DNA of 34,818 nucleotides from a virus. Taxonomy: Duplodnaviria > Heunggongvirae > Uroviricota > Caudoviricetes. Below the pieces are notes generated by a model, which did not search any database, had not been told where the DNA came from, and worked only from the letters and a program-made list of their open reading frames with translations. Positions 3,771 through 26,732 of this stretch are shown piece by piece (position 1 is the stretch's first letter; every line of letters starts with the position of its first letter). Location of the stretch: the IMG/VR virus record IMGVR_UViG_3300042519_001716; one strand, written 5' to 3'. The position numbers were made by a program, and so were the translations under genes.

Positions 3771-4880
3771 TTATCTCCAACCACAATGTCCAGATGATGT
3801 CCCAGCGTTAACCCGTGGTGCTAATCCCGTAATGGCATTTGAACCTGTGTCGGTTGCGTAAACCATTATCCAAGACGTATTGTTTTGTCCTGTTCCATCA
3901 TAATTTCCTAACATATATTGCCAGTCTTGTCCTAATGCGAAGTTTTCTTCACCACAGTTGGCATGTGGCTTTGCAACATTACCAAGATTCGTATCCGTAG
4001 AATTACTCCATCTTCTTAAGTTGTAACCACCATTATATGACCCCTCGTTACCACAATAACCTTTCCCAACTTTAGATGGTATACCTTTTTGTTGTGCGTG
4101 TGCTCCCCATTGTGTTGATGAGCTTGGTGTTTCATTTGAAAAATTAAATTTTATACCCGCAGATGTTGTCCACGCATATCCAAAACTTTCATCATAAAAT
4201 GCGCCGGCACCATCGTTACCGCTTATTGACGTTACACCAAATCCACTTACATAACTTTCGTTAGATAGGTTAAATTTTTCAATTGTTGTTGATCCACCCG
4301 AAATTAAATAGGCAAACTCTGTTTCTTTTTGCATAGTTGCAACGTCACTTCTAGCAATACCTGTGTTAAATTTAGCTTGATGAGCATAGTTTGTATCGTT
4401 AAACAAATTAATTGCTGATGTCCGAGTCCCATGAATACTATCTGGACCTTTCCATGCCCCATCATCATTTACTGACCAAATAAACAATATTGTTTTATTA
4501 CATGCACCAGATGTATATGATGCGGGATAATCTAACAATTCACCGACGTGTGTTGTTTGATTCGTTGAGTTTGTTGTTTTATGTACGTTTCTCCAAGGTG
4601 ATGAATCTTTATAACCACCAGCCAAATATGTGTATGATAAAACTTGTCTATATTTAAATGCTATTGGAATGGTTTCTTGTGCCGCAATTCTCTCCCATCC
4701 GTTATCAATATTTGATACGCCGGTATATAACATTAAAAAGCTACCACTAGTGGATTCTTCCAAATATAAAGAACCAGATAATGGTGAACCAGGTCTGCTT
4801 GCTCTAACACCTCTAGGTGGTCTATTAACCACCCTATCTGATGTTAAACTACCACTAACTTCTAAATTCTCGTATATCAT
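3771..4880 (-). CDS. Beta-propeller-like (Kelch-like) putative virion protein, paralog 3
   Basis: N-terminal PRGVRASRPGSPLSGSLYLE fibre-type motif; repeats starting YLAGGY/YLISGG/YMLGNY; ends GTSSGHCGWR; aligns end to end with the two neighbours. Confidence 0.55.
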   Translation of the reverse strand: MIYENLEVSGSLTSDRVVNRPPRGVRASRPGSPLSGSLYLEESTSGSFLMLYTGVSNIDNGWERIAAQETIPIAFKYRQVLSYTYLAGGYKDSSPWRNVHKTTNSTNQTTHVGELLDYPASYTSGACNKTILFIWSVNDDGAWKGPDSIHGTRTSAINLFNDTNYAHQAKFNTGIARSDVATMQKETEFAYLISGGSTTIEKFNLSNESYVSGFGVTSISGNDGAGAFYDESFGYAWTTSAGIKFNFSNETPSSSTQWGAHAQQKGIPSKVGKGYCGNEGSYNGGYNLRRWSNSTDTNLGNVAKPHANCGEENFALGQDWQYMLGNYDGTGQNNTSWIMVYATDTGSNAITGLAPRVNAGTSSGHCGWR

Positions 4881-4894
4881 AATTTAATTATTTT

Positions 4895-6001
4895 TTACCC
4901 TCTCCATCCACAATGCCCAGATGATGTTCCAGCATTGACTGCGGGGTTTAACCCACTTACACTGGTTGTTCCTGTATCTGTTGCATAGAAGAATTTCCAA
5001 CTTGTATTATTTTGTAGCCCATCATAATTACCTAACATATACTGATGATCTTGACCCATGGTAAAATTTTCTTCACCGCAATTAGGATGAGGCTTTGATA
5101 CGTTTCCAATGTTGGTATCATTAGCATTACTCCATCTTCTTAAGTTGTAACCACCATTATATGAACCTTCGTTTCCAGCATAACCTTTTCCAACTTTTGA
5201 ACTAATTCCTTTTTGTTGTGAATGTGCGCCCCACATTCCACTTGATGTAATTGTTTCCGTTGCAAAACTCATTTTAATACCTGCAGATGACGTCCAACCA
5301 TATCCAAAGTTTTCATCAGAAAATGCTGAACCACCATCACTACCATCGATCGTTGTTAAATGAAAACCAGTTGCTATTGTTTCTGTACTTAAATCAAATC
5401 TTTCAACGACAGTACTACCGCCGGTAAACATATAAGCCATTTCTGTTTCTTTATGCATGGTTCCCAAGTCACTTCTAGCATTGGTAATATTGAATTTTTG
5501 ATTATGTGTATAGTTTGTGTCATTAGCCATATTAATTGCTGAGGTTCTAACACTATCTACAGTACTCGGTCCTTTAAATGTATTATCTGTATTAACCGAC
5601 CAAATAAAAAAGATATATTTGCTACAAGCTCCCGATGTATATGATGCTGGATGATCTAACAATTCTCCAATGTGTGTTGTTTGATCTGTAGAGTTAATTG
5701 TTTTGTGAACATTTTTCCAAGGGGATGAATCTTTATAACCACCCGCAAGATAAGAAACACTAATTATCTGTCTAAATTTAAAACCAACATTGGCATTTAC
5801 TTGAGAAGATACCCTAACCCATCCACTATCACTATTACTTAAACCAACATAAACCATTAAAAAACTACCACTAGTTGCTTGTTCTAAATATAAAGAACCA
5901 GTTTGCGGACTGCCAGGTCTATTTGCCCGTGTTCCAATTGGTGATTTTATCACACCTTGTGCTTTTAGGGACCCACTAATTTCAATATTTTCGTGTAGCA
6001 T
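4895..6001 (-). CDS. Beta-propeller-like putative virion protein, paralog 2
   Basis: Same architecture as 3771-4880; ends GTSSGHCGWRG. Confidence 0.55.
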   Translation of the reverse strand: MLHENIEISGSLKAQGVIKSPIGTRANRPGSPQTGSLYLEQATSGSFLMVYVGLSNSDSGWVRVSSQVNANVGFKFRQIISVSYLAGGYKDSSPWKNVHKTINSTDQTTHIGELLDHPASYTSGACSKYIFFIWSVNTDNTFKGPSTVDSVRTSAINMANDTNYTHNQKFNITNARSDLGTMHKETEMAYMFTGGSTVVERFDLSTETIATGFHLTTIDGSDGGSAFSDENFGYGWTSSAGIKMSFATETITSSGMWGAHSQQKGISSKVGKGYAGNEGSYNGGYNLRRWSNANDTNIGNVSKPHPNCGEENFTMGQDHQYMLGNYDGLQNNTSWKFFYATDTGTTSVSGLNPAVNAGTSSGHCGWRG

Positions 6002-6005
6002 ATCT

Positions 6006-6015
6006 TATAAATATA
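6006..6015 (-). promoter_or_regulatory. TATATTTATA motif (candidate phage late/structural promoter)
   Basis: Lies in an 18-nt gap just upstream of an ATG. The same 10-mer is at 15981-15990, and the TATTTAT core is at 12129-12135 and 14227-14234, all intergenic. Confidence 0.35.
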
Positions 6016-6019
6016 AATT

Positions 6020-7159
6020 TTATGTTCTCCAACCGCAATGGCCTGATGATGTTCCATCATTTACTCCTGGCGCCAAACCACTAGGGTTTACTGTACCAGT
6101 ATCCGTAGTGTAACCAAATTTCCAACTAGTATTTACCTGTGCACCGTCATAACAACCTAACATATATTGATGATCTTGTCCCATTGTAAAGTTTTCTTCT
6201 CCGCAGTTAGGGTGTGGCTTTGCTACATTGCCAATATTTGTTTCTGTGAAAACATTCCATCTTCTTAAATTATAACCTCCGTTATATGTTCCTTCATTTC
6301 CCGCATAACCTTTACCCACCTTTGAACTAATACCTTTTTGTTGACCGCTCGCACCCCACTGCTGATTATTTGTGAATGTATCATTTGCGAAGAATAGTTT
6401 TGTACCACTTTGTTGTGTCCATCCATAACCATAATTCTCATCTGAAAATCCTGATGCACCAGAAGGGCCACTACCCGTGATTGATGATGTTGTTGTAATG
6501 TATGGGACACCTGCTTGATAGTAAACACTATACATTGTCTCGTTTGTTAAATTGAACTTCTCGACCGCAGCAACTCCAGCACCAAATATCCAAGCAAATT
6601 CCGTTTCTTGGTGTAAAGTACCACAATCATCTCTCGCGTTTGCTAAATCCCATTTGGTTTGATGAGCGTATGATGTTTCGTTTACCATATTAACACCACT
6701 TGTCCATGTTGAATGAATGGTGCTATCTCCTTTAAATGTACCATCGGTATTTGTTGACCATAGAAATAAAATACTTTTACTGCAAGCACCAGATGTATAT
6801 GATGCTGGGTAATCTAATAATTCACCTAAGTGAACCGTTTGGTCTGTTGAATTTGTTGTTCTATGAACATTCTTCCATGGTGATGCGGATTTATAACCAC
6901 CAGCTAAGTATGAGTAATTAATAACCTGTCTATATTTAAATCCTGTTCTATCTGTATTTTGTGAACCAACTGGTTCCCAACCACCATCATAATTTGAAGA
7001 TGCAGTATATGTAACTACAAAGCTACCACTAGTAGATTCTTCCAAATATAATGACCCAATATCAGGACTAGATGGCCTATTTGCTCGTGGCCCTCTTGGT
7101 ATAATATATTGTCCACTAACATTTAAGGACCCACTAACTTCTACATTTTCTCTTAACAT
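6020..7159 (-). CDS. Beta-propeller-like putative virion protein, paralog 1
   Basis: Same architecture, with an ~11-aa insertion (VYYQAGVPYITT region); ends GTSSGHCGWRT. Confidence 0.55.
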   Translation of the reverse strand: MLRENVEVSGSLNVSGQYIIPRGPRANRPSSPDIGSLYLEESTSGSFVVTYTASSNYDGGWEPVGSQNTDRTGFKYRQVINYSYLAGGYKSASPWKNVHRTTNSTDQTVHLGELLDYPASYTSGACSKSILFLWSTNTDGTFKGDSTIHSTWTSGVNMVNETSYAHQTKWDLANARDDCGTLHQETEFAWIFGAGVAAVEKFNLTNETMYSVYYQAGVPYITTTSSITGSGPSGASGFSDENYGYGWTQQSGTKLFFANDTFTNNQQWGASGQQKGISSKVGKGYAGNEGTYNGGYNLRRWNVFTETNIGNVAKPHPNCGEENFTMGQDHQYMLGCYDGAQVNTSWKFGYTTDTGTVNPSGLAPGVNDGTSSGHCGWRT

Positions 7160-7178
7160 ATTATATAATATACGGATT

Positions 7179-10100
7179 TTATCTTACAACTACAACCCTA
7201 CCTGATCTAGAAGATGAAAAAGTTATTGTAACCACCGATGTGCTTGTTGTAACAATTGATGATGGCCAGAACATATTATCTGAACTGTCATAAACAAATA
7301 CTGCCACATCTTTTGTTCCTAAACTATGTGTTACCGTTACTGATGATACACTACTAAATGTTGTTGAGTATGATGAGTTTGAATATGATTTAGCGGTACT
7401 TCCACCGATAGTTAATGCGGTGTGGAAATTTGGTATACCACCTCCACTAATTGAAAATATATACCCGGTATTTGTTCCATCATTTTTATAAATGTAAAAT
7501 GGCGTTGCATCTGTATTAGATCTACCAACTATTTCCCATTTGTTATTTCCCGCAGAGTCTTGGAATTGAATAATGTTACCACTAGTTGAAGCTAACTCTC
7601 TTAATTTTAAAACCCGACTATCGGTATCACTGGTAAATATCGCAGCCTTAAATGTAGGTACTGCCGATGTTGCAACTGATTGTCCTATGGATACGGTAAC
7701 CGAACCTGTTGTTGTGTCAACACCAACACCAGTTCCCGCATTAACCGCAGTTACTTTAGCCGCGGTATATGTTGTTGATATTGAACTACCATTCCAAGTA
7801 CCACTTGTAATTGTACCAACCGTTGCTAAATTCGATAATGACGTTAATGATGTATTTGAACTTGCTGTAATGTTTGTTGCATTTCCAGTTAATGTACCAA
7901 CAAAATTACCGGAGTTCATTGTTACCCCCGCACTGTCAACGGTCATTATTTTGGTCCAAGTACCTCCACCCGTTCCGGCTGAGTTGTACCAATGAGTTAA
8001 ACCACCAGTACTAAGACTATCAATTGCACCATGTGGAACATTATCACCATTTGCATCTGGAGCTCCCCACCAAACCGATGCGGTTGATGTTCCTCTAAAA
8101 TATACTGTTCTACTCGTATCTGTTGCATTACCACCAAATGAATTACCAAATGTAACACTACCCGCACCAGATGAAAATTTAACAAGATTTGATGTTGCAG
8201 TACCACTTCTTAAATAGGTAGAGGTTACTCCCGCAAATGTTGGTGTTGATGTTGTTGCAATACTTTGTGGTAAACTTAATGTAACACCACCAGTATTTGC
8301 ACTAACCGTTACTTGATTAGTTGTTCCTGTTAAAGATGTCACACCACTATTTGTGACCGTAACGGCACCTGTTGTTGTGTTTACACTTATACCTGTTCCA
8401 GCACTAACACTAGTTACTTTTGCATCTGTATATGTTGTTGAAATCGATGAACCATTCCAAACACCGCTATTAATTGTACCCACTGTGGTGATTGCTAGTG
8501 CGTTTACTCTTGCTAATGTCTCATCCCCAGTATTGGTTCCTGAAGATGCACCACTATGTGTTCCGCTAAAATTAGCTGCGGTCATATTATAACCAAATGT
8601 GGCAACGCCCGTTGTTTGATTTAACGTTAACACGTCAGCCGCAAGTGTTTCACTATAACATATATAATTGTTAGATGTTAAATTTTCTCTTAAACCTATG
8701 AACCACTTAGAACTACCCGCAGTTTGATAATATAAACCAACATAATTTGATGTTGCGGGTCTATTAAGATTTAACCCTCCTGTTGAATTATTAATTATTA
8801 ATGCGGTACTTGTTGTTGCACCTCTACTAGTAACAGTTGATAATGTTTCACTTGTTGCGAGTCCTTGTAATGAACCCGTAAATGCTGTTGACGTAACCGA
8901 AGTTAAACCTGCAAGTGATGTTGACGTTCCACCCAATGTTGTTGATGTGGAACCAATTGTAATTGTTTTATTTGAACCTAATTGTGACCCATCTATTTGT
9001 GATGAACCACTAATAACACCATCAGCGTTTAATTTTGATTTAACACCGGTGGTAAATGTTGCTGACGATGTGTCAATTGCAATATCGTCAGCGTTTACTG
9101 TTATACCATTACCGGCGCCCACATTAATCGTCCGAGTTGCTGAAATATCACCACCTCCCGTTAAACCACTTCCGGCAGTAATTGAAACCGTTGTGTGATC
9201 TATATGTTGATTAGCTACATAATTTGTTGTTGCGTTATGATTCACTTGAACGGAACCACTTATAACACCGTCACTATTTAATTTATTTTTAATCGTTGTA
9301 TTAATAGAACTAGTGAATGAGTTTAATGAACCTGTTGATGTTTCAACATTACCTATTCTTGTAACAGCATTGTTAAATTCTGTTTCTCTTACTAATCTTT
9401 GTTCTGAACCTAACTGACCAGCAACCCAATAATCATTCGTTGAATCCCATAATAAAGATCCTGATATTTGACTTGGTGCTGTTGTATCTTTAACTCTTAA
9501 ACCAGCAAATGTTGCACCACTACCATTCAGATTAATTAAGTTATTATCGACATCAAGTGTTGATGTGTTTACGTTTGTTGTTGTACCCTTAACTAAAAAG
9601 TCGCCCCTAACAGTTAAGTTTGAACCTGTTAATTCTATTGCAGTTAATAACGAAGAGGTAAATGTGTTTAAACTACCTGTGGATGTCTCAATTGCGGTTA
9701 TAGTTGGGCTACTGATAACTTCAGTTACTTTTAATGTACCTGTAACTTCCGTATTTGAATTAATGGATACCTTAGTTCCATTATCAGTGATATTACTATC
9801 GTTTAAGTGTTCTATCCCTGTACCTTTAGGTATACGGTTTAATGTAAGATATGGCTCCCCACCAAGATTATTGTAGGTCTCTGGACCCATTAATAAAACA
9901 GAAGATGTTACTGAAGCTTGATCTTGGTGAACAAATAACCATTGGTTGTTAACGGAATCAAATAACATTGAGCCTGAAACTTGTGGTGATGAACCACTGT
10001 CAATAACAGCTAAACCACCAAATCTTACTGACGGATTAAGTGCGTTAACAGTTATGATGTTATCGGCAATGTTTAATACGGAAGAACTTATATTTTGTAT

Positions 10101-13161: not shown

Positions 13162-13659
13162 TTAAATTAGTTTTTTATTAAATTCACTTTTATTCCCTTT
13201 TCGTAATCTTTTATCACTATTGACATCATATATGTCTTCATAATAAGTAATTGGAGTGTTAAGTTTATATGATAATTCATTCAAATCCTTATTCCATTTT
13301 ATTACATCATTATAACATAAATCAAATAACTTAGGTGGAACCTCTTCGTAATAATATTGATGATTTGAATTGTAATTTTTATTTTTTGAGAAGTAGGTTT
13401 GATATGCGTGGGATTCTACACATTGTAATATGTTTTTTCTAGATAATAATATTACCTCATCGAATTCTTTACTTAATTCAAAATTATTTGAGTGATGACA
13501 TATGATCGTTTTAAGAACAATATTTTTTTCACCATTATATTTAAATCTACCGCTATTATCGAACGGTTCAAATATAGGAGTAAAGCCCTTTTCTTTTGCT
13601 AATTTATATAATAATGAAGTTGAGCCGGTTCTAGGTAATGCAACGATTAATATACTCAT
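13162..13659 (-). CDS. Sulfotransferase-like protein
   Basis: IVALPRTGSTSL, FEPF, LLSRKN, ITYYEDIY; paralog of 12184-12747; ends KKLI. Confidence 0.7.
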   Translation of the reverse strand: MSILIVALPRTGSTSLLYKLAKEKGFTPIFEPFDNSGRFKYNGEKNIVLKTIICHHSNNFELSKEFDEVILLSRKNILQCVESHAYQTYFSKNKNYNSNHQYYYEEVPPKLFDLCYNDVIKWNKDLNELSYKLNTPITYYEDIYDVNSDKRLRKGNKSEFNKKLI

Positions 13660-14225
13660 ATCAATGTTTTTTCAACTTTACGTTTTGGCCGGTCAGAATT
13701 GATGTTATCCATCCAAACATTTAACGCATATCGCGTACCATTTGTGACTGGTAGAACTCCATGATATGTTTTAAATCCATTAAAAGAAATCATATCGCCA
13801 ATTTTTAAATCATAAGTTGTAATGCCATCCATTTTATTAAAATGAATATCTGGAGTGTTACTATCACTTAATGCGAATTGACCACCTTCAAACCCATTTG
13901 ATAACACAATTACTGATGTTAACTCACTATCCGCATCTTTATGTAAATTTAGATACCTACCATTGTAATAAGATGTTAAACTAATGAGAAAATTCTTTAG
14001 ATTAAAATTATCAAAATCAAACCATAAATTAAAATTTCCAGTTTTATAATTATTCATTAATGAAGTAATTATTTGTTCCTTAAACCCCTCATCATGTATG
14101 CGTCTACAATCCCATAATTCATTTGGGCGATATGAAAAAGGCTTACCGTGTTGAATACAAAAATTAATTATATCAGCACATTCGGTTTCTGTAAAAACAT
14201 TATTATTTATTGAATAATTTATCAT
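13656..14225 (-). CDS. 2OG-Fe(II) oxygenase (prolyl-hydroxylase-like)
   Basis: LHKD (HxD), FEGGQF, YHGVLPVTNGTRYALNVW. Start shortened to MINYS (14225). Ends KTLI. Confidence 0.85.
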   Translation of the reverse strand: MINYSINNNVFTETECADIINFCIQHGKPFSYRPNELWDCRRIHDEGFKEQIITSLMNNYKTGNFNLWFDFDNFNLKNFLISLTSYYNGRYLNLHKDADSELTSVIVLSNGFEGGQFALSDSNTPDIHFNKMDGITTYDLKIGDMISFNGFKTYHGVLPVTNGTRYALNVWMDNINSDRPKRKVEKTLI

Positions 14226-14260
14226 ATATAAATAAATGAACAAACATTCATCTTTTTAAA

Positions 14261-14407
14261 TTATGATAAGTGTTTGTCTTTTATAGCAGTAACAACAGCT
14301 TGGAATGCAGTTGATATTTTTGTCTTTATGTCAGCTGGTAATGAACTAATTATTGGTTTAATAACTGTTGCGGGTCTTTCTTGTCTAATTTTAGGGGTCT
14401 TTGCCAT
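14261..14407 (-). CDS. Unannotated 48-aa basic peptide MAKTPKIRQERPATVIKPIISSLPADIKTKISTAFQAVVTAIKDKHLS
   Basis: Manual translation. ATG 35 nt after the Hint-gene stop, behind an A/T-rich leader; fills the gap to the next gene; falls below the ORF-track length cutoff. Confidence 0.7.
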   Translation of the reverse strand: MAKTPKIRQERPATVIKPIISSLPADIKTKISTAFQAVVTAIKDKHLS

Positions 14408-14442
14408 GATATATTTTTATTTTATATTTTTTATTAAAATTA

Positions 14443-15942
14443 TTAAGGAACAAATTTTTGTTGTCCGCCACCACCCCATGCACAAGTTGGGCAATAATAT
14501 GAATAACAATAATTACCACAATAAGACCAACTACACCAACAACCGTTGTGCATTACACTAAAATCTCCATCCCCAATATCAACTAAGAATAAGTCAGATG
14601 GCGCAAAATCAAGTGTATAAATTGTTTTAGTTTCATATATCATTTCTAAACCACTAATTAGAACCGTTGTTAATTCATTAGTGTTTGAATCGGTTATTAC
14701 CAATTTATCTCCAACATATAAACTATTTACCTTTTCAAATCTGGTTGCTGTTGAATCTTTTTCTTCAATATAATATACACACGCGGGGGTGTCTGACCAA
14801 CTTCTACCATCTTCTAATGTTATTTGTATCATTACCGTTTCTACTTGTGTTGACACCATGTTCTGTAAACCAGACGATACCTGTGTTAATGTGTCGTTTG
14901 ATTGTTGAAGTGTACTATCCCAACCATATGTATTAATTTCTGGTGTAAAAGATGCCGCTTCGTTTTCATTTGAATCTACAAAATTAATAGATCGGACATA
15001 GTCACCTAATTGTATTGTGCTAACATTTGTTAATGTACCATCATAATTCAAAATGTTTGATTCGTCATCTGTGTGATAATCATTTCCCGATCCTTTACCC
15101 ACCTCTTTAGTGATATATTTGTATCTACTTTTTTGGTTTAATTTTTTTGTACCGGAAACGAATTCGGTAGCAGCAAACGAAACTGGGATTACCGCAGATT
15201 GTGTGTACCCACCCATATTAATAATGTCCAAATTCGAACCGTATATAATATCAATTCCTCTTATAATTGAATACTTACCATCTACCAAGTTATCTTCTGA
15301 AAATATAAATTCTTGAACTAAGAAATTATTTTCAGCAGAATTTATTGTGTCAACTAATTCGGTATTATTTGAAACCGCGTATAGCGCTGGATATTTCATT
15401 TTATCATATTGTGGATAACGATATTTTATCAACACATTTGGATTTGTAGTATCACTATAGTCAACATCATCCAAAGTATTTACATTTAACGTATCCGAGA
15501 TACAATGTGTTTTGGGAATATGTTGTGAATCTTTCATTAAATTAAAAAATTCAAACTTATCGGCGCAGTATGTTTCGTCTACTAATGCTGTGGTATCAAA
15601 AGCCTGTCTTAAAATAAATTTATTATTGGCGTCTTCAATAAATGGTACCGTTACTGAATTCATCGGTACTATATGGTCAGTATATGATATGTTATTTTCT
15701 GCACATTTTATTTGTAATATTTGTCTAAATCTATGTGTTTGATTTATAGGGCTATACGCGACGCCTTCTGTCCATATATAATGAAATTCAGTAATATTAT
15801 TACTATTTAATACATCAAATAATGCATCATAATCTAATAAATCCGCTCCATCATTATATATTGTGGTGTTTGTGTTTATCTCCAAAAATTTAACATTATC
15901 ATCTTTTTGTAAAAAATCACTACCAATTATTGTTGCTTTCAT
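14443..15942 (-). CDS. Fusion: circularly permuted ATP-grasp-like domain + Hint (intein-like) domain + 33-aa Cys/Trp/Tyr-rich C-terminal peptide
   Basis: ATP-grasp-like motifs IIGSDFL..KFLEINTN, DKFEFF..IPKT, VLIK, FLVQEFI, IIRG. Hint block A-like SNILNYDGTLTNVSTIQLGDYVRS and block F/G-like IYTLDF..DLFLV..GDFSVMHN. Tail GCWCSWSYCGNYCYSYYCPTCAWGGGGQQKFVP. Confidence 0.7.
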   Translation of the reverse strand: MKATIIGSDFLQKDDNVKFLEINTNTTIYNDGADLLDYDALFDVLNSNNITEFHYIWTEGVAYSPINQTHRFRQILQIKCAENNISYTDHIVPMNSVTVPFIEDANNKFILRQAFDTTALVDETYCADKFEFFNLMKDSQHIPKTHCISDTLNVNTLDDVDYSDTTNPNVLIKYRYPQYDKMKYPALYAVSNNTELVDTINSAENNFLVQEFIFSEDNLVDGKYSIIRGIDIIYGSNLDIINMGGYTQSAVIPVSFAATEFVSGTKKLNQKSRYKYITKEVGKGSGNDYHTDDESNILNYDGTLTNVSTIQLGDYVRSINFVDSNENEAASFTPEINTYGWDSTLQQSNDTLTQVSSGLQNMVSTQVETVMIQITLEDGRSWSDTPACVYYIEEKDSTATRFEKVNSLYVGDKLVITDSNTNELTTVLISGLEMIYETKTIYTLDFAPSDLFLVDIGDGDFSVMHNGCWCSWSYCGNYCYSYYCPTCAWGGGGQQKFVP

Positions 15943-15975
15943 AAAATTTTATTTCTCATTTTCATTTATTGTGTC

Positions 15976-15995
15976 TTAGTTATAAATATAACTAA
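15976..15995. promoter_or_regulatory. Perfect 9-bp inverted repeat TTAGTTATA-AA-TATAACTAA overlapping the TATATTTATA motif
   Basis: Read directly from sequence; lies 33 nt upstream of the ATP-grasp-Hint start, in the largest intergenic gap of the window. Confidence 0.5.
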
Positions 15996-16039
15996 CCACC
16001 ATTTTAAACTAAGTATATAGATATATAGATATATATCGT

Positions 16040-16342
16040 CTAAATTAAAGTGTTCTCACTTTTATCTTCAAGTGGTTTTAAATAGCCTGAATCAATTTCG
16101 CCCCAAAATTTTTCTGGGCACGCATTATAATCTGTTGAAAAAACTTTCTTATTTAGGGGACATCCACATTTATTACAAAAAACACTCCATTTTAACCCTT
16201 TTATCATTTCTTTTCTATGGTCACAGCCTAAACAAAAATCCAGTCTTAGTTTAGCCAATTCTTCTTGTCTGATAGTTGGATTTAAGGAAATCTTCCAAGC
16301 CTCAAATATTTTTTTATAATCAATCTTAGGGGTATTAATCAT
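16040..16342 (-). CDS. Small Cys-rich metal-binding protein (CxxC...CxxCGC...CP..W)
   Basis: CLGC, CNKCGC and CPEKFW motifs; ends NTLI. Confidence 0.65.
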   Translation of the reverse strand: MINTPKIDYKKIFEAWKISLNPTIRQEELAKLRLDFCLGCDHRKEMIKGLKWSVFCNKCGCPLNKKVFSTDYNACPEKFWGEIDSGYLKPLEDKSENTLI

Positions 16343-17067
16343 ATTAATGTTTTATTATTTTTTTGGATATCGTAATAATCATAAATATCGTTATATCTCC
16401 GTATGAAATCGTCATTCAATTTTAAATTACAATCAAAATGTTGACTCCCATTTGATTTTTCCATTTTAAATGGTTTACCAGTTTTATTAGACACCCATTC
16501 TTCCAATTCTTCAAAATTTCCAAATTCGAACCATTTTATTTTTTGATTATTGTTGTGCCAATGTGATATAGGTCTAAATAAAATTAATAACATATTTTTC
16601 ATATAATCATTAAAATATTTTTCAATTTTGTTTTTTTTTGCAAATTCAAACATTAATAATTCTTGAGATTTTATGGAAATTAAATCTAAATCTTTAAAAA
16701 ATAATATGTCCTCTAAACTTAATTTTTTTAATATGTTAGTTAATTCCTTTGGGTATAACATATAAGTTAAATCAATTATATGTTTCCATAATGAAATAAA
16801 TCTTTCATGTTTATTTCGTCTAATTGAAATTATATCATATTCATCACCAAATTTCATAGTTAAATCAACTAGTCTTTCGTGACTATGAACAATATTGTCG
16901 GCCAAATCTTCATTGGTTAGAGATAAATCTATTTTATCTTGGTAACTATCTATTAATAGTTGGTCAAAGTGTTTTATTATAAATCCACTTCGTATGCAGG
17001 ACATATAAAAAGATGTTGATGCGCATCTTGGTAATGATATAAATAAAAATTTATTTTCCACTAACAT
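16339..17067 (-). CDS. Sulfotransferase family 2-like protein
   Basis: FLFISLPRCASTSF, SIRRNKHERFISLW, FEFGNFEEL; ends KTLI. Confidence 0.7.
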   Translation of the reverse strand: MLVENKFLFISLPRCASTSFYMSCIRSGFIIKHFDQLLIDSYQDKIDLSLTNEDLADNIVHSHERLVDLTMKFGDEYDIISIRRNKHERFISLWKHIIDLTYMLYPKELTNILKKLSLEDILFFKDLDLISIKSQELLMFEFAKKNKIEKYFNDYMKNMLLILFRPISHWHNNNQKIKWFEFGNFEELEEWVSNKTGKPFKMEKSNGSQHFDCNLKLNDDFIRRYNDIYDYYDIQKNNKTLI

Positions 17068-19378: not shown

Positions 19379-19588
19379 CTATTTTTTAAGCCCATACTTA
19401 ATCCATCTATACCATACTCTTTCATGTATATAATATTGGATGGGTTTATAGATCAATTCCGCCACCCCAAATGCAGCACCAAATTTAATTGATCCACTTA
19501 TTAACCACATCAATAAGAATCCAATTAAGGTACTTACAATTCGATATGAGATGGTTTTAGCAATGTGTCTCTTCTTTTCTACTATCAT
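19379..19588 (-). CDS. DUF2061-like small membrane protein
   Basis: RHIAKTISYRIVST...YYIHERVW signature; adjacent to CysC, a commonly seen linkage. Confidence 0.8.
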   Translation of the reverse strand: MIVEKKRHIAKTISYRIVSTLIGFLLMWLISGSIKFGAAFGVAELIYKPIQYYIHERVWYRWIKYGLKK

Positions 19589-19968
19589 TATCCCTTTGTT
19601 TGATCATATTTAATTTCACCGTCGGGTGTCATGTGGCCAGTTCTAATTGCTGTACCACTAATCGTTGCTATCTCAGTTGGTGGTTCGTGGTATATTACAT
19701 CATAACCAACCCCTCTACCATAATTAATGCTCTCAATATCAGGAATAATTGATATGTTAATTCTTTGTGAATTTTCTCTAAAGAAAGGTTCTTCACTTAG
19801 ATCCATCATAACTTGCTGTGCGGTCTTAGGGTTATTTTCATCCGTTGGCACGTTCCTAATTGCAACCCACACATCTTTTCCTTTATCTAATTGTTGGTTA
19901 ATAAGCCATTCGTGGCCCTTATGCCAATTTTGCCAACGCCCCACATACATTGCGTATTTTTTACTCAT
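19588..19968 (-). CDS. Cytidylyltransferase-like (HIGH-motif) nucleotidyltransferase
   Basis: YVGRWQNWHKGH (HxGH) and ISGTAIR (KMSKS-equivalent) motifs. Confidence 0.8.
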   Translation of the reverse strand: MSKKYAMYVGRWQNWHKGHEWLINQQLDKGKDVWVAIRNVPTDENNPKTAQQVMMDLSEEPFFRENSQRINISIIPDIESINYGRGVGYDVIYHEPPTEIATISGTAIRTGHMTPDGEIKYDQTKG

Positions 19969-20399
19969 AATGATAATTTTTTTAACAGTTCATAATATGA
20001 ATCTGTTTCGTTTTTTATTGTTGTGTCTATATCTATAAAATTTTCTAATGGTGGTTCATATTCCTCAACATGGAATTGATTCCTACCTCTATCTTCTGTA
20101 GTGTGAACATAAATCTCAACAACCGATGTGCTGAACTTAAATGCCTCTCTTTGATCTCTATACGGTGAAACTAGGGATACAATAACATTGTGTCCTTTAC
20201 TATGCATAAATTGCGCAATGTATTGTGCTCTCTGGATGTTTAGTCTTCTTCCTGTAATGGAATAGTCTTTATTCTTAAAGATGTCTCTTAGATCATCCCC
20301 ATCGATATGAGTGACCTCATCTTTTGGGAAGTATTCCACCAAGTATTTTGCAAGGGTTGTTTTACCTGCTCCGGGTTGTCCTGTTAACCAGTATATCAT
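19965..20399 (-). CDS. cysC: Adenylyl-sulfate (APS) kinase
   Basis: YWLTGQPGAGKTTLA P-loop, IDGDDLR, VSLVSPY, YEPPL. Confidence 0.85.
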   Translation of the reverse strand: MIYWLTGQPGAGKTTLAKYLVEYFPKDEVTHIDGDDLRDIFKNKDYSITGRRLNIQRAQYIAQFMHSKGHNVIVSLVSPYRDQREAFKFSTSVVEIYVHTTEDRGRNQFHVEEYEPPLENFIDIDTTIKNETDSYYELLKKLSL

Positions 20400-20437: not shown

Positions 20438-21661
20438 TTAATCAATAAAAATATCACCTAACCATGGGCATATTTCCTTATAATCGGTTTTATTAATTTC
20501 GTCAAATCTCCTTAAGGTTTCCGGTAGTGAAATAGTAACATATTTCTTCTTATCTAATAGGTGGCTATAAACTTCCTCATCCTCAGTGTTTCTTAAATAT
20601 TTAACAAATTCAATCAACGTATATCTACAAAGTGATGTTAAATTGTTTATGTTGTTTTCATAAAGTTCTATTAACGCTTGTTTCATGCCACCCTTACAAA
20701 TTCCAGGTGCAAAATAAAAAGGTTGAGTCACAGTATGAAACCTAATGTGATCTGAATGGAGGTAATTTTCTTCAACAAACTTTATGAAATCAAAAGAATG
20801 GTACATGTTTATTGTTGAAATAGTATAATCAATAGAAACTTTGAAATTGTCGTTGGTTTCTTTAAACTTAATTAGCGTTTCCAGATTTTTAAAGAATTTT
20901 TCAGAATTAAATCCTGGTCTTTGATATTCACCAATTTTACCATACCCATCACATGAACAAGAAATATCTACAGTTTTAAAACGTTTAAGTTTATCAAGTA
21001 TGTCAATACCTTTGTATGTTAGTGTGGATAAGTTTGTATTGATTAATATATAAACCTTTTTAGCCTGTTCATCACTGAATCTATCTAACAAGGTAAATGT
21101 TGTTGGTGTTATAAATGGTTCACCACCAGCTAAATAAACTTTACGAATAGAATCAATATTTTCTTCTGAAAACTTATCAAGAGCGTCGTCACCCGCTGTT
21201 AAGTACTTGGTATTGATGGTATCATATTCTGGTTGATTTTGAACATAACCCCAATACTCAAACCAGGTTGATGATGACCCATGAAAACACATTCTACATT
21301 TAAAGTTACAATGATTAGAAAGTCTCAAATCTGTGTAAACAATTTTGTTTACACTATAGTCTTCATTATATAGTGATGGGTCCGCTATTTCTTCTCTAAA
21401 CTCAATGTTACTATGCTCTTTGTGTCTATTTTTATAAACAAAACATTCCGCACATTCAGATGGCGCAATATTAGATAACATCTCTTTTCTAATACGTTTA
21501 TATGGTTCACTATTAATTGCTTCATCAACAGAATTGAAATCCTTGAAATGAATATTCTCTTTAAATGGAGAAGCCACACAACAAGGTGATAGTGTGCCAG
21601 ATGCCCCAACATAAATTGAACCAAAGGGTAAATAACAAAATTTCTCTGAGATGGTATTCAT
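20438..21661 (-). CDS. Radical SAM protein with N-terminal SPASM/twitch domain (array member 6)
   Basis: CYLPF..SPCC..CAEC at the N-terminus; RLSNHCNFKCRMC; AGGEPF. Confidence 0.9.
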   Translation of the reverse strand: MNTISEKFCYLPFGSIYVGASGTLSPCCVASPFKENIHFKDFNSVDEAINSEPYKRIRKEMLSNIAPSECAECFVYKNRHKEHSNIEFREEIADPSLYNEDYSVNKIVYTDLRLSNHCNFKCRMCFHGSSSTWFEYWGYVQNQPEYDTINTKYLTAGDDALDKFSEENIDSIRKVYLAGGEPFITPTTFTLLDRFSDEQAKKVYILINTNLSTLTYKGIDILDKLKRFKTVDISCSCDGYGKIGEYQRPGFNSEKFFKNLETLIKFKETNDNFKVSIDYTISTINMYHSFDFIKFVEENYLHSDHIRFHTVTQPFYFAPGICKGGMKQALIELYENNINNLTSLCRYTLIEFVKYLRNTEDEEVYSHLLDKKKYVTISLPETLRRFDEINKTDYKEICPWLGDIFID

Positions 21662-22959
21662 TACAATAATTTTACATTATCATCTTTTGGTAATTCAATG
21701 ATAACATTTGGATCGATAAAATCTCTAAACTCAGTAAACACAGAAAAGAAATCATCACCTCTGAATGTGTCAACCATGTCTGTCATTTTTAAAAACTTTT
21801 GGAACATTTCTTCGTCTCTTTCTTGATTTAACAAGTCTATTACAAATTCAAATTGTCCTATATCTCGTTGTGCTTCACTGTTATCCGCTATGTTATTTTT
21901 TATCCAAATTATAAGGTTATTATACAATATTCTAAGAACCTCTTTATGTCTTTCAGGTAGCATTTTTATCTGAAGGTGTTCTGGATGTGTCAATAAATTA
22001 ATATGAATTTTACCAGGAAGTAAGTAGCCATTTTCTATCCAATTTTTATATAAATCAATTATGGTATAGCTATTCATTATGTTAATTGTTGGTACAATTC
22101 CAAAAAAAGTATCTGGTAGTTCTCTCAAAAGTGTTTTTCTATTCTCAACTATTTCAGACCATTTTGATCCACTTCTAAGATATTGGCCTCTCTCTTCAAA
22201 ACCATCTATACTTGCTGTTATCTCAACGGCTTTGAACTTCTTCCACATCTCAATTATATTATAATCTTTATAATATAATTTTGTGAAATTGGTTGTAACC
22301 CACACTGTTATATTTTTAGCATAGTCATTGTCTATGCAGTATTGTAATATTTGATAATGTTTATCTTGTGTTAATGGTTCGCCACCAGCAAAAAATAATG
22401 ACTTAACATGCTTTAATTGGCTTAAAATAAAATTAAACTCATCATCATCAACCGACATACTATATGGTTGACCATAATCTTTAAAATTATTGAAGCCTAA
22501 CGCTTTATACTCTTTATATAATGATGATGAAAAACCGGGATTACAAATCCTACATTTTAAATTACATTTATTATCAAAACGTAGATCTAAGTGTTTAAAT
22601 TGTATTATTTTTAATGAAAAATCTTCATTTGTGTTTTCCACAATGTTTTCTATTTCATCTTCAAACTGTTTGTTTAAATTAAATCTGTAACTATCAACTT
22701 GGCTCTTCCCTTTTGAAACCTCTTCTCTATACCAGCAAATTTGACACTCGTTTATCTTCTCACCATTCCACAATCTTTTTCTAACATCCTTTGCAACATC
22801 AGAATTATACATTTCATTTAATGGAACGCCTTGCTTAAGTTCTCCGAAAACTCGTTCTTGTTTATATAAACAACAAGGTACAACATTTCCAAATGTACTT
22901 AAATGTGAAGCAATCCATGGAGCAACACAAAAGGTTTCTTCGTTATAATTTTTTTCCAT
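21661..22959 (-). CDS. Radical SAM protein with N-terminal SPASM/twitch domain (member 5; ends KLL)
   Basis: CVAPW..VPCC..CQIC; RFDNKCNLKCRIC; AGGEPL. Confidence 0.9.
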   Translation of the reverse strand: MEKNYNEETFCVAPWIASHLSTFGNVVPCCLYKQERVFGELKQGVPLNEMYNSDVAKDVRKRLWNGEKINECQICWYREEVSKGKSQVDSYRFNLNKQFEDEIENIVENTNEDFSLKIIQFKHLDLRFDNKCNLKCRICNPGFSSSLYKEYKALGFNNFKDYGQPYSMSVDDDEFNFILSQLKHVKSLFFAGGEPLTQDKHYQILQYCIDNDYAKNITVWVTTNFTKLYYKDYNIIEMWKKFKAVEITASIDGFEERGQYLRSGSKWSEIVENRKTLLRELPDTFFGIVPTINIMNSYTIIDLYKNWIENGYLLPGKIHINLLTHPEHLQIKMLPERHKEVLRILYNNLIIWIKNNIADNSEAQRDIGQFEFVIDLLNQERDEEMFQKFLKMTDMVDTFRGDDFFSVFTEFRDFIDPNVIIELPKDDNVKLL

Positions 22960-24432
22960 TTAATTTAATTCATTTTTTTGTCTGGCATTATTTCTAGCCA
23001 TAATGTCTGGTTTATACTCACCAAGCTCCCAACCTTCCATACCACCACCAGACAATTTAACATCTGGTATATAGTTGTCTATTTGAATAGAATCGTACCA
23101 ATCAACTAACATTGGAAATGTTTTTCTAAAGTCTTTGTTCCTTCTGATATCATATTGTACATAAAAACTTTTGAAATCATGGAAGTGTTTATCTTTATCG
23201 AACTCAGCTCTAGCGTGTCCTTGATCAACAACATCAATGTAATCAATTACTCTTTGAGTTTGTGTTATCTCATGTTCTAATAATAAACCAGAATCTCTGT
23301 TCTTATCTAACCAAACTTGAATTTTATTTTTAGCTTCAATCTTAATATTATCTGGTAAATTTAATGGTGACATAAATCCTGGCCATCTTAAGAAGTTAAG
23401 ATCCATTGTTGGTTTATTAGGGCCATACTTTTTCTTTAACTCCAACATATCATCCATGAACTCAGTAATAGACATTAATGATAAACCAGTCACAGTCATC
23501 ATGATTACAATTTGTCTAATGTTCGCTTCTTCAATCATTCTAACAACATTACCTCTCCATTTTGGATAAATCAAACCATCTCTAAGATATTCAGCATGAT
23601 CACCATATGATTCACAACTTGTATAGATATCATATGATTGAATATCTAATTCGTGTGTTGTTCTAATTAATTTATCGATCAATTCATCTTTAACACCTAA
23701 ATTAGAATTTATTGATAGATTCAACTTAGGATATGATTGGCCCTTAATTTTATCTAGGAATTTCCAAAAGTTATGACTCGTTGATGGTTCCCCGCCAGTG
23801 ATTCTTAATGTTTGTAAATCTTTTGATAAGTCTGGCCACCATTCTAGGAATGCCGTAACGTATGGGTTATCACCAATAAATTTATTTTCAGGATCTGCCC
23901 ATGAACCATTTTGTTGATATGCACCGGCAGTTAATGTTTTAAACTTTTGATATGGACCATGTTCGTCAATATCTCTACCCCAAGTTGTTGAATAACTTGG
24001 ATTACAATATGAACAAGCAAAATTACAACTTCTATCAAATGATAATTCAACAGTTCTTAAATTAACATCAGCATCCCATGGTAGATCTTTTAACATGTCA
24101 ATATCTTCATGTTTATATTCCATGCTTCTATATACTCTATCTGATATGTTATTTCTACCAATATCTTCTACCTTCCAACAATAAGAACATTCGGCTGGTC
24201 TAATACCTGATAACATCATTCTTCTCATTTTCTTTTTATGTGAAGTATTATGTAATGCCGATGGGTTTGTTTTAATTTCCTCCAAATCAATTGGGTGAGG
24301 TAATGGTAGGAAACATGACCTACTATACCCACTACCTAAATCAATAGTTGCGTTATACCACTTGGCAGGACAGAAGCTACAGCTAACTGAATCTAATTTT
24401 TCTTCTTTAAATTTTAATAGTCTTTCTGACAT
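22960..24432 (-). CDS. Radical SAM protein with N-terminal twitch-like domain (member 4)
   Basis: CSFCPAKW..SC..CSYCW; FDRSCNFACSYC; TGGEP. Confidence 0.9.
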   Translation of the reverse strand: MSERLLKFKEEKLDSVSCSFCPAKWYNATIDLGSGYSRSCFLPLPHPIDLEEIKTNPSALHNTSHKKKMRRMMLSGIRPAECSYCWKVEDIGRNNISDRVYRSMEYKHEDIDMLKDLPWDADVNLRTVELSFDRSCNFACSYCNPSYSTTWGRDIDEHGPYQKFKTLTAGAYQQNGSWADPENKFIGDNPYVTAFLEWWPDLSKDLQTLRITGGEPSTSHNFWKFLDKIKGQSYPKLNLSINSNLGVKDELIDKLIRTTHELDIQSYDIYTSCESYGDHAEYLRDGLIYPKWRGNVVRMIEEANIRQIVIMMTVTGLSLMSITEFMDDMLELKKKYGPNKPTMDLNFLRWPGFMSPLNLPDNIKIEAKNKIQVWLDKNRDSGLLLEHEITQTQRVIDYIDVVDQGHARAEFDKDKHFHDFKSFYVQYDIRRNKDFRKTFPMLVDWYDSIQIDNYIPDVKLSGGGMEGWELGEYKPDIMARNNARQKNELN

Positions 24433-24433
24433 C

Positions 24434-25708
24434 TTATATTAATTTTGTTGTTTTTGTAATATTATATATTTCTTCTAAATCCGCAAATGTATCAGCAAAA
24501 GATTCATTCCTTAAAATGTCTAATGCTAATGTTTGTCTCTTAAATTCTTGCCAATCGCCTTGTGTACCCTCAACAGGTAATTTTAATGTGTTTATAACTT
24601 TATGTGCTTGCCTCATTACATCCCTTCTATATTGTTTTTCAGAATCATCTATTGTTGTATCATCATTAATTTGTAAAATCCTAAGATTATATTCGGATTC
24701 AAGTTTTTCTAAAATAAGTTTTTTACACTTCTCTGGCATATATCCAATATGTAAGTGTCTAGGGTTGTAAACAAAAGCTATCATTAATTTTAAATGATTC
24801 TCAATAACAAAATCAACCATCTCAAAAACATAAAGAACATTTAGCATTGATATAGTACAACACACCTCAAAGATTATTTTATGGTCTGGAATTAATTTAA
24901 CTTTATTTTGCCAAATATTAATATTTTCACTAACCACATCCCATTTACCAAAATGTCTTAAATAGTTGAATCTTTTACCAACACCATCAATACTAAAACC
25001 AATTCTACACTGTTCAAATGAGCTTAAAATATCAATATATTTCTCATTTATAATTGTGCCGTTTGTATTAAAACTCATTTGTTGTGTTTTAGAATATCCT
25101 AACTTAACGGACATTTCTAAAATCTCCCATTGCTTTTTCATCAACATTGGTTCACCACCATATATGTCTAAACTTCTAACTTCAGGAAGTATACTCATTA
25201 ATTCAGCCCAAACAATACTATTGTCTCTAAATGCTTTTGAATATTTATCTACATAATAGTCTAATCTTTCTTCGGTCACATCGGTTTCTGTTACATGATG
25301 AAAGTCTTTCCATTTTGATGATGCAGATATATGACATATTCTACATGCGAGATTACATGTGTTACCAAGATTTAATTCTAAAAAAAATAAATCAGAATCT
25401 TTTCTTTCTGGATATAATTCAAGAGTAGTCTTATATGTTTCATTATCTCTTTCTCGTTTGCTAACAAATCCAGCATCTTCTGCTGACCAACAAACAACAC
25501 AAGCCGGATGCCTAATATCATTTTTAAAATCATCTAACATTTTCATTCTAGTTGGGCTTTTTAGCCCTTCTTCAATTGAATGTGTGCTAGCTAACATTTC
25601 ATCACCATTTTCATCTTTAAATGGGTTATTAAACGTGTGACAACACGCAAAATAGCCCCCAGATGTTGCTATTCTAAAACCGTTTGTTAGATTTTTACAC
25701 TCAATCAT
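24434..25708 (-). CDS. Radical SAM protein with N-terminal twitch-like domain (member 3; ends KLI)
   Basis: CKNL..ACC..CVVCW; LGNTCNLACRIC; YGGEPM. Confidence 0.9.
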   Translation of the reverse strand: MIECKNLTNGFRIATSGGYFACCHTFNNPFKDENGDEMLASTHSIEEGLKSPTRMKMLDDFKNDIRHPACVVCWSAEDAGFVSKRERDNETYKTTLELYPERKDSDLFFLELNLGNTCNLACRICHISASSKWKDFHHVTETDVTEERLDYYVDKYSKAFRDNSIVWAELMSILPEVRSLDIYGGEPMLMKKQWEILEMSVKLGYSKTQQMSFNTNGTIINEKYIDILSSFEQCRIGFSIDGVGKRFNYLRHFGKWDVVSENINIWQNKVKLIPDHKIIFEVCCTISMLNVLYVFEMVDFVIENHLKLMIAFVYNPRHLHIGYMPEKCKKLILEKLESEYNLRILQINDDTTIDDSEKQYRRDVMRQAHKVINTLKLPVEGTQGDWQEFKRQTLALDILRNESFADTFADLEEIYNITKTTKLI

Positions 25709-26727
25709 TATTCAATTGTTAAATTATGTCTAATATTATTTGAAACTGGTAATCTATGGTATATTTCAACCATATCTTTATAATTAGGATGTTCAGGATT
25801 ACCAACATCAACAATTTTAAATGTTTCACTCTGGAATGTTCCCCAATTAACTACCCTATTAAAAAATATCTGCCAATTAATGTGTGTGTCATCGAATATC
25901 TCTTCTGACATTTTATAAAACATTTCCATTTCTTTATAGTTTGAGTTTTGAACAACAAACGACATGGTAACATATTCTAGATTGGGTAATGTTGCAATAA
26001 ATTTAAGATTGCTTTGAATGTCTTCCCATTTGCCACCTAAGCGTGTATAATTTTCATACGTGTCTTTTGTTGCTGCATCAACAGATATCTCAGCAGACTT
26101 AATAAATCTATGCACATTTGTCATTTTAGACCAGTTAGATTCGTTCCAAAGAGTACCGTTGGTATGTAAGTGTATACTTTTTAAATTCGGGTACAGGCTG
26201 GGCTTAAATGTCATCAACCACTTTTTAAATGTTCTTGAAAAAAAGGGATCACCAGATCCGGTACATTCAATATGTTCAAGTCCTTCAGATAATTGTTCTT
26301 CAATACTTTGTAATATTAATTCGGTTCTTGTTCTTTCTTCACCACTATAATTTATTTTTTCTAAACGACAACTAGGGCACTGTAGGTTACAGCTTTGATC
26401 AAAATTAAATTTAACACTTTTGGGTACCGGGTCTTTAAACTGATCGATTTTTCTTAAGAACTCTTCCTTTGGCATAAAGCCTTCGCTTTTACCTTCTTTT
26501 AACCCCGTTAATTTAGGACATCTAGCTTCAATACAATATTTGTAACTACCATCTATCATACTTTCTCTGACCTTATTTGCTAGATCAGAAACCCAAGTGT
26601 TTTTAATATCTATTGGATCACCTAAATCAACAGGTAACCAATTTGGACAACACATATATGTTTTATAATCAAAGAATTCGGTGAACTCAAATGGTTGTAA
26701 ACAAACAAAATCTTTTTTATCTAACAT
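25708..26727 (-). CDS. Radical SAM protein with N-terminal twitch-like domain (member 2)
   Basis: CLQPF..MCC..C....CP; FDQSCNLQCPSC; GSGDPF replaces GGEP. Confidence 0.88.
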   Translation of the reverse strand: MLDKKDFVCLQPFEFTEFFDYKTYMCCPNWLPVDLGDPIDIKNTWVSDLANKVRESMIDGSYKYCIEARCPKLTGLKEGKSEGFMPKEEFLRKIDQFKDPVPKSVKFNFDQSCNLQCPSCRLEKINYSGEERTRTELILQSIEEQLSEGLEHIECTGSGDPFFSRTFKKWLMTFKPSLYPNLKSIHLHTNGTLWNESNWSKMTNVHRFIKSAEISVDAATKDTYENYTRLGGKWEDIQSNLKFIATLPNLEYVTMSFVVQNSNYKEMEMFYKMSEEIFDDTHINWQIFFNRVVNWGTFQSETFKIVDVGNPEHPNYKDMVEIYHRLPVSNNIRHNLTIE

Positions 26728-26732
26728 AAATT

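Follow-up and report, generated by a model that had tools for sequence, protein, structure and literature searches.

The window considered here, a stretch of 34,818 nucleotides from the tailed-phage record IMGVR_UViG_3300042519_001716 of IMG/VR, carries on its minus strand a gene, P0001, whose product joins in a single chain a ligase domain, a Hint domain and a short cysteine-rich tail. The DNA belongs to a large phage from an aquatic setting that has not been cultured; the nearest IMG/VR record is 251 kb long and judged 75% complete, and related contigs extend up to 316 kb. Residue conservation and structural modelling give good grounds for a Hint domain that would be able to cut only at its own C-terminal end and that stands poised before the cysteine-rich peptide. 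The features of the locus that bear on this finding are the following.

14443-15942, minus strand: whole gene P0001, the fusion of ligase, Hint domain and Cys tail (499 residues plus stop, from the open reading frame list and its translation; coding part without the stop, 14446-15942)
15088-15942, minus strand: residues 1-285, circularly permuted ATP-grasp amide-ligase domain as judged from structure alignment and Foldseek
14545-15075, minus strand: residues 290-466, Hint domain with His290 at position 1 instead of an N-terminal nucleophile
14593-14595, minus strand: Asp450, at intein block F position 13 (F:13) according to the hhalign register and column counts
14545-14550, minus strand: His465-Asn466, asparagine-lyase pair predicted from conservation, with Asn466/Gly467 as the scissile bond
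14482-14544, minus strand: residues 467-487, Trp- and Tyr-rich scaffold with its six Cys spaced as C-x-C-x4-C-G-x2-C-x4-C-x2-C
14446-14481, minus strand: residues 488-499, a linker rich in Gly and the C-terminal end with its Lys
14261-14407, minus strand: 48-residue open reading frame (ORF) directly downstream, predicted partner of P0001, ending in K-x-K-H-L-S

Fold of the Hint and ligase domains

An earlier note, made from the letters of this DNA, had placed a Hint-like domain at about 15078-14545, closing with His-Asn, and behind it a 33-residue tail with six Cys, three Trp, five Tyr and a Gly4 run. Both sets of coordinates are exact on the translation: the codons of Tyr289-His290-Thr291 begin at base 15078, and the tail (residues 467-499, at 14446-14544), which also holds one Lys, has an average mass of 3726 Da. 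The fold itself is seen in an AlphaFold2 model, which reached a mean predicted local distance difference test value (pLDDT) of 90.5 and a predicted template modelling score (pTM) of 0.85 with only residues 469-499 disordered, and which was built from an alignment of 143 relatives, given that 19 close sequences alone yielded a pLDDT of 43 and an unusable model. VIA-align superposes the Hint domain on the Tetrahymena BIL2 structure 6y75, a bacterial intein-like (BIL) domain, with Z 16.6 and a root-mean-square deviation of 1.8 Å over 139 residues, and on NpuDnaB, RecA and Hedgehog Hint domains with Z 15-16, whilst Foldseek retrieves inteins, Hedgehog Hint and BIL domains at E of about 1e-7, with template modelling scores of 0.75-0.80 by target (0.78-0.80 to Hedgehog 1at0 and to the RecA intein 2in0) and a probability of 1.00. 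In this structural register residues 290 to 466 of the model correspond to intein residues 1 to last. Profiles point to the same assignment. A P0001-type profile of 116 sequences aligned by hhalign with the canonical Hint domains that long relatives carry as extra C-terminal parts, at 99.0% and E 5.9e-18. In this alignment Cys1 is matched by His290, the block-B T-x-x-H by Thr385 to Cys388, F:13 by Asp450 and block G by His465-Asn466. Those extra parts match Intein_splicing, PT-HINT, Hint and Hint_2 significantly; P0001 itself has no match to PF07591 at E up to 0.1, and its profile aligns with relatives' canonical Hints that do match PF07591. On the model and the profiles, residues 290-466 are a true Hint fold, and the check by structure prediction and profiles that the earlier note had proposed has come out in its favour.

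The N-terminal part is likewise assigned at the level of the fold. VIA-align of residues 1-280 gave Z 10.0 to YgiC (7uka, 201 residues), 9.2 to the glutathionylspermidine synthetase GspS (2io7) and 8-9 to eukaryotic-type glutathione synthetases, LysX/ArgX (Z 6) and TTL being weaker, and Foldseek found YjfC (7uk6) at E 1.6e-5. All these matches are carboxylate-amine ligases; as modelled, residues 1-285 are such a ligase with a circularly permuted ATP-grasp fold, a membership that holds for the fold without a match at the level of Pfam. E21, N23, R112 and D122 are invariant in 143/143 relatives, including those that carry a mere stub behind the Hint domain; the ligase is probably active. Within the same set K173 and R228, besides the E-x-N at residues 21-23, are invariant or nearly so.

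P0001, its tail and the 48-residue ORF found nothing significant in Pfam, PHROGs and NCBIfam, the only lead being RimK at E 0.063, and a profile search of PDB sequences with P0001 returned a chance-level match (E 0.39). No tblastn match to the gene was obtained among 50,697 deposited phage genomes, so that no cultured phage of this set carries it. On the other hand, the P0001-type layout recurs in more than 600 clusters at 90% identity (at least 628, which are 65-94% identical and about 495 residues long) and in about 320 at 50%, all in aquatic tailed phages, and 321 relatives, many of them 600-770 residues long, were found among 1.84 billion cluster representatives. The six tail Cys, Gly476 and the His-Asn pair are invariant across a 19-sequence spread of close homologues, and exactly six tail Cys occur in 119/120 of the close homologues. 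Since at least 628 clusters share the layout and the six Cys do not vary, the tail is not a chance run of Cys codons.

The Hint junction and the peptide behind it

In inteins, the acyl shift and the branched intermediate depend on Cys1 and positions B:7, B:10 and F:4, and F:13, G:6 and G:7 act in the cyclisation of the terminal asparagine, which a His at F:13 assists (PMC4031507). Residue counts in the alignment of the 143 relatives, which reaches down to 21% identity, divide along this line. Position 1 is His in 61, Lys in 18, Gly in 17, Ile in 9, Ser in 8 and Leu in 8 relatives, and never a conserved nucleophile; the block-B His position (B:10) is Cys388 in P0001 and S, A, T, C or N in the family; F:4 is Thr443, with S, T, E or N elsewhere and no Cys column; and the +1 residue, Gly467, is variable, mostly A, P, Y, V, I or L, with Cys in one non-Hint form. 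By comparison, His465 is kept in 137/143 and Asn466 in 142/143 relatives, and F:13, Asp450 in P0001, is Asp in 101/143 and His in 27/143. As F:13, the His and the Asn are retained and the residues of the N-terminal steps are gone, the family appears to have kept only the asparagine-lyase half-reaction. The description given by the earlier note, with YHT where the nucleophile is expected, a replaced block-B His, Gly at +1 and a diverged block F, is borne out residue by residue, and the column counts add that the C-terminal His-Asn is under strong selection. We infer from this conservation that the Asn466-Gly467 bond may indeed be cleaved.

The sequences that follow His-Asn were compared among 117 cluster representatives, which distribute as follows.

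84/117: Cys-rich tail of 21-242 residues, unalignable between subfamilies
6/117: Cys-rich tail followed directly by a canonical Hint
16/117: one or two canonical Hints within 8 residues of His-Asn
9/117: stub of 3-8 residues
2/117: other arrangements

About one fifth of the subfamilies are thus devoid of a Cys tail and have stubs or extra Hint domains instead. The canonical Hints of the relatives have Cys1, T-x-x-H and a V-H-N end; the next residue is K, R, F, Y or A and in no case Cys, Ser or Thr, as is characteristic of type-A BIL domains, whose main activity is cleavage (PMC4031507). They always stand immediately before the terminal Lys; such insertions are seen in P0123, P0125, P0129, P0131, P0132 and P0134, and one or two canonical BIL-like Hints are also present in P0233, P0242, P0249, P0261, P0267 and P0269. 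A Lys falls within the last three residues of 75/117 representatives, compared with 15% expected, and the excess holds for Cys tails, stubs and canonical Hints (VHN-K, VHN-KK, VHN-KF) alike. In the tree of the ligase-Hint core each form with a tail plus a Hint is sister to a plain-tail form, which suggests that the extra Hints are gained and lost like mobile elements, and the stub and Hint-only forms fall in one mixed clade with support 99. Because six lineages bracket the Cys peptide with two junctions of predicted self-cleaving type, this peptide looks like a separable unit. The His-Asn pair is degraded in 4/9 stub forms and in 3/108 forms with a tail or a further Hint (Fisher p 5e-4, to be read with the losses in stub forms amounting to about two independent events in lineages that are not independent). 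Its loss mainly in stub forms suggests that the pair is kept where there is cargo to release.

The nature of this cargo can be approached from its cysteines, which are even in number in 80/84 Cys-tail subfamilies, within a range of 4-16 (six in 33 subfamilies, eight in 33 and ten in 11). For the forms with a tail plus a Hint this evenness requires that Cys1 of the Hint be left uncounted. An even number that persists when the count changes is what is seen in disulfide-rich mini-proteins, and as such parity is expected only from disulfides, it favours disulfide pairing over thioethers and metal clusters. This disagrees with the suggestions of the earlier note that the tail could be a Zn/Fe-binding knuckle or a substrate for radical thioether chemistry; 45/80 even counts are not multiples of four, which is why a knuckle of the Zn(Cys)4 or Fe-S kind was set aside as the leading explanation. 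Relative to the bodies of the proteins, the tails of the family are enriched 25-fold in Cys, 2.6-fold in Trp, 2.3-fold in Gly, 1.9-fold in Pro and 1.5-fold in Tyr. The ratio of nonsynonymous to synonymous substitution rates (dN/dS), estimated in the close family from 78 unsaturated pairs, is 0.18 for the ligase, 0.18 for the Hint domain, 0.23 for the six-Cys scaffold and 0.38 for its non-Cys positions; for the Gly-rich end (residues 488-499) it is 0.55-0.63 over the unsaturated and saturated sets, with an amino-acid identity of 0.31. Judging from these substitution rates, the tail evolves about twice as fast as the body yet is a constrained fold and not a free-running hypervariable core. The hypervariability anticipated by the earlier note is therefore real between subfamilies, but among close homologues selection on the scaffold is purifying and not diversifying. 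Language-model look-alikes of the tail alone all scored below 0.8 and are meaningless. Parity and conservation together argue that the tail is probably released as a small disulfide-knotted peptide.

A further component is suggested by the 48-residue ORF, which is present in 79/81 related loci and recognisable behind relatives in three distant contexts, in one of them uncalled. Its product always ends in K-x-K-H-L, with K43, K45 and H46 invariant. Complex prediction of P0001 with this protein scored 0.81, the best of three controls being 0.06; a score of this level is reached by 58/80 solved complexes and by 2/110 mismatched pairs, although custom alignments were used here and these counts are only a rough guide. 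The runs agree in at least 78% of the contacts, and the pLDDT of the partner is at least 76. The predicted contacts involve a face of the ligase sheet (residues 6-22 and 220-251) and Hint residues 324-342, 401-409 and 432-434, so that in the models the protein resembles a clamp or subunit across both domains and not a substrate placed in the active site.

With these elements at hand, we propose that one cut at Asn466-Gly467 frees a three-disulfide mini-peptide, the variable cargo of a core machine made of ligase, Hint and partner, a reading to which we give a probability of roughly 0.5. After folding, Asn466 would cyclise to a succinimide with a single break of the Asn466-Gly467 bond, yielding a ligase-Hint fragment of 52.7 kDa and a peptide of 3.7 kDa whose alpha-amine is free. 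The peptide would oxidise to a three-disulfide mini-protein on leaving the reducing cytoplasm at lysis, as Cys parity suggests, and the 48-residue protein would clamp the ligase and Hint domains as a subunit. Such a peptide would be a variable cargo, like the payloads behind pretoxin-HINT domains, and not an obligatory substrate of the neighbouring enzymes.

The enzyme island and competing explanations

The P0001 gene lies within a minus-strand run of small enzyme genes. This island encodes five 2-oxoglutarate (2OG)-Fe(II) oxygenases, sulfotransferase-like proteins of the P-loop type, one protein with a SET domain, an adenosine 5'-phosphosulfate (APS)-kinase module, seven radical S-adenosylmethionine (SAM) proteins and glycosyltransferases, together with a 1642-residue fibre protein. 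Neighbourhoods were counted within 6 kb at 81 related loci from the close alignment, where 2OG oxygenases occur in 63-68 and sulfotransferase-like genes in 50-75. Counterparts of most of the radical SAM genes are found at 2-4 of the 81 loci, and that of the gene at 25708-26727 at 24. Six radical SAM genes stand back to back at 20438-28091 (minus strand) and the seventh at 1214-2215; three of the former run carry a SPASM domain, which is N-terminal and not at the usual C-terminus. The island of distant relatives comprises APS kinase, DUF2061, a 2OG or Asp/Arg hydroxylase, radical SAM, SET and methyltransferase genes, and once a Trp halogenase. The company of tailoring enzymes, which the earlier note had expected of homologues, is thus a real property of these loci. 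The stub relative P0176, the two-Hint relative P0261 and the tail-plus-Hint relative P0129 all sit in the same kind of island, and when the stub and Hint-only loci were searched for small ORFs that might encode a Cys-rich peptide on their own, nothing but antisense noise came up; therefore, the island enzymes do not seem to need the Cys tail.

Most small enzyme genes around P0001 (12184-19369, minus strand) encode proteins that end in (K/S/T/N)-Leu-Ile-COOH, as do sulfotransferase-like neighbours of very distant relatives (L083:6605-7198, L083:8752-9369 and L086:10074-10775, locus names being followed by positions). P0001 and the 48-residue ORF are without this ending, and a standalone 291-residue ligase relative, P0143, ends in K-L-I. 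The shared tag suggests an organising principle for the enzymes other than the tail. Directly upstream of P0001, a 100-residue ORF at 16040-16342 (minus strand) with six Cys in CxxC-like pairs and a weak phrog_13558 match is kept in 75/81 related loci and has the Leu-Ile end. An APS-kinase-like gene and small partner genes (DUF2061 in relatives) recur upstream of the gene for the fusion, also where the relatives are distant (19588-20399, minus strand, in the window; L083:3476-3910 and 5322-5543; L086:5856-6299 and 7184-7396), which suggests a conserved sulfation supply for the island. Elsewhere in the window, three tandem paralogues of about 370 residues (phrog_1417) lie at 3771-7159 (minus strand) between the 1642-residue fibre gene and further phage genes. 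A scan of 13600-16500 for sigma-70 promoters and terminators found sites no more numerous than in shuffles.

The earlier note had seen in the tail the core of a ribosomally synthesised and post-translationally modified peptide (RiPP). In such a scheme the neighbouring 2OG, sulfotransferase-like, SET and radical SAM enzymes would hydroxylate the tail, sulfate its Tyr and link its Cys by thioethers, before or after the cut. The conserved vicinity of these enzymes, in distant relatives as well, the Trp, Pro and Tyr enrichment of the tail and the seven radical SAM genes of the window, three with SPASM, are all consistent with it. Nevertheless, we hold it unlikely that the tail is such a core: stub and Hint-only forms live in the same island with no separate Cys-rich peptide gene, neither thioether nor metal chemistry would lead one to expect even Cys numbers, just 2-24 of the 81 homologues have the window's radical SAM paralogues nearby, and the enzymes share a C-terminal tag of their own. 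The proposal stands for the association with tailoring genes and is doubtful for the tail as their core substrate. A second explanation, which we also regard as improbable, dispenses with cleavage altogether and makes of the degenerate Hint a structural element whose attached tail, a disulfide or metal knuckle, would anchor or regulate the ligase or dock on the virion. In its favour, the majority of the catalytic residues of inteins have been lost and F:13 is occupied by Asp, the fixed domain packing (pTM 0.85) and a predicted partner bridging both domains suggest a structural Hint, and the scaffold is under purifying selection as the body is. However, a purely structural Hint gives no reason for a His-Asn pair kept while the other catalytic positions drift, nor for its loss mostly where nothing follows; even Cys numbers like 6 or 10 are not predicted by metal sites, and a tail swapped wholesale between subfamilies fits a cargo better than an integral element.

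It is far less probable that the Hint domain excises itself and joins the ligase to the Cys tail. The earlier note went too far in stating that a Hint domain lacking Cys1 cannot splice, as inteins of classes 2 and 3 do so (PMC4031507), and both termini of the P0001 Hint are in intein register. Class 2, however, requires a Cys+1 that attacks the N-terminal junction, and class 3 a Cys at F:4, within the WCT triad (PMC4031507). Neither residue is found here, the block-B His is absent, and in no relative is the ligase fused directly to the Cys tail, relatives of 265-322 residues ending without one. As regards class 1, the domain has the terminal His-Asn and lacks Cys/Ser1, His B:10 and Cys/Ser/Thr+1; the missing Cys1 also sets it apart from type-A BIL domains. 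Splicing inteins of classes 1-3 were accordingly rejected on account of the +1 Gly, Thr443 at F:4, the lack of a block-B His and the His at position 1. It is tempting to speculate on a further step after the cut, in which the fused ligase would activate the Lys-bearing C-terminus of the peptide and join it to the peptide's own N-terminus, to a polyamine or to a protein lysine. Doubtful as we consider it, this step would, if true, explain why ligase, C-terminally cleaving Hint and peptide share one chain, why the Gly-rich linker and terminal Lys are conserved, why a thioester-forming Hint flanks the peptide in some relatives and why stubs of 5-7 residues are worth cutting; ligation to the own N-terminus would produce a head-to-tail cyclic three-disulfide peptide without protease or thioesterase.

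Several points weigh against the release of a disulfide-knotted peptide that we favour. The branched intermediate cannot form in the P0001 Hint, and in many inteins asparagine cyclisation is slow without it (PMC4031507); moreover, F:13 is here Asp and not the usual His. What speaks for cleavage is the conservation of residues, and Cys parity and His-Asn loss were both counted on related sequences, so that their p-values overstate independence. As 5/9 stubs keep His-Asn with 5-7 residues behind it, the release of a peptide would not be the whole reason for the cut. The tail has a pLDDT below 50 in the model, where no fold is seen for it, and given its tight and conserved linkage to tailoring enzymes, Trp halogenase included, it may still be modified where it is present.

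Comparison with known systems

The Hint fold is familiar from inteins, from the processing of Hedgehog proteins and from the release of polymorphic toxins. A widespread natural Hint reduced to the asparagine-lyase half-reaction, set between an ATP-dependent peptide ligase and a variable Cys peptide, would be a new use of the fold and a new route to small peptides in viruses, and full-text literature searches found no paper on an ATP-grasp enzyme with a Hint domain, an intein-like domain or a cysteine-rich peptide in phages. If the cut is real, it would provide a naturally occurring module for single-turnover C-terminal cleavage and a large collection of knotted peptides made by phages, and it would open a way into the neighbouring island of enzymes with C-terminal tags, with the predicted 48-residue clamp as a concrete second component of the system.

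The N-terminal domain shares its permuted ATP-grasp fold with YgiC, YjfC and glutathionylspermidine synthetase. Enzymes of this type activate a peptide C-terminal carboxylate and join it to an amine, YgiC and YjfC being peptide-spermidine ligases (Pederick et al. 2023, cited in PMC12568646). The P0001 ligase differs from them in being smaller (about 285 residues), fused to a Hint, paired with a 48-residue protein and devoid of a significant profile match.

A close analogy in layout is offered by the PT-HINT domain (PF07591) of bacterial polymorphic toxins, a Hint autopeptidase that precedes a variable payload and is thought to release it (Zhang et al. 2012, PMC3482391). The P0001 family has as well a constant N-terminal part, a Hint and then a highly variable C-terminal payload, and the canonical Hints of its long relatives match PF07591. 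PT-HINT, however, keeps the N-terminal Cys that the P0001 Hint has lost, its payload is a toxin enzyme domain and not a Cys-rich peptide of 21-242 residues, its N-terminal part is a stalk or secretion module where P0001 has a ligase, and P0001 belongs to a phage, without an immunity gene.

Type-A BIL domains act mainly by cleavage and have no +1 nucleophile (PMC4031507), and in the Tetrahymena BUBL arrangement a small ubiquitin-like domain with a BIL on either side is cut free at each end and passed to an amine (PMC8616854). BIL2 (6y75/6tmm) is the best structural match of the P0001 Hint, and the six subfamilies with a Cys tail between a degenerate Hint and a canonical Cys1 Hint resemble BUBL in their order. 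Unlike these systems, the P0001 Hint has no Cys1 and would perform the asparagine step only, P0001 has no second Hint, and the unit flanked in its relatives is a Cys-rich peptide rather than a ubiquitin-like domain. A close counterpart in chemistry is man-made: the Cys1-to-Ala mini-inteins derived from Mtu RecA or Ssp DnaB cleave at their C-terminus and are used for tag removal. They exploit a side reaction of inteins, off-pathway C-terminal cleavage (PMC4031507), and like P0001 they lack the N-terminal nucleophile and yet cut the bond after the terminal Asn, as P0001 is predicted to do. These mini-inteins are products of engineering in which the His residues of block B and F:13 are retained, whereas P0001 would be a natural version, with Asp at F:13 and no block-B His.

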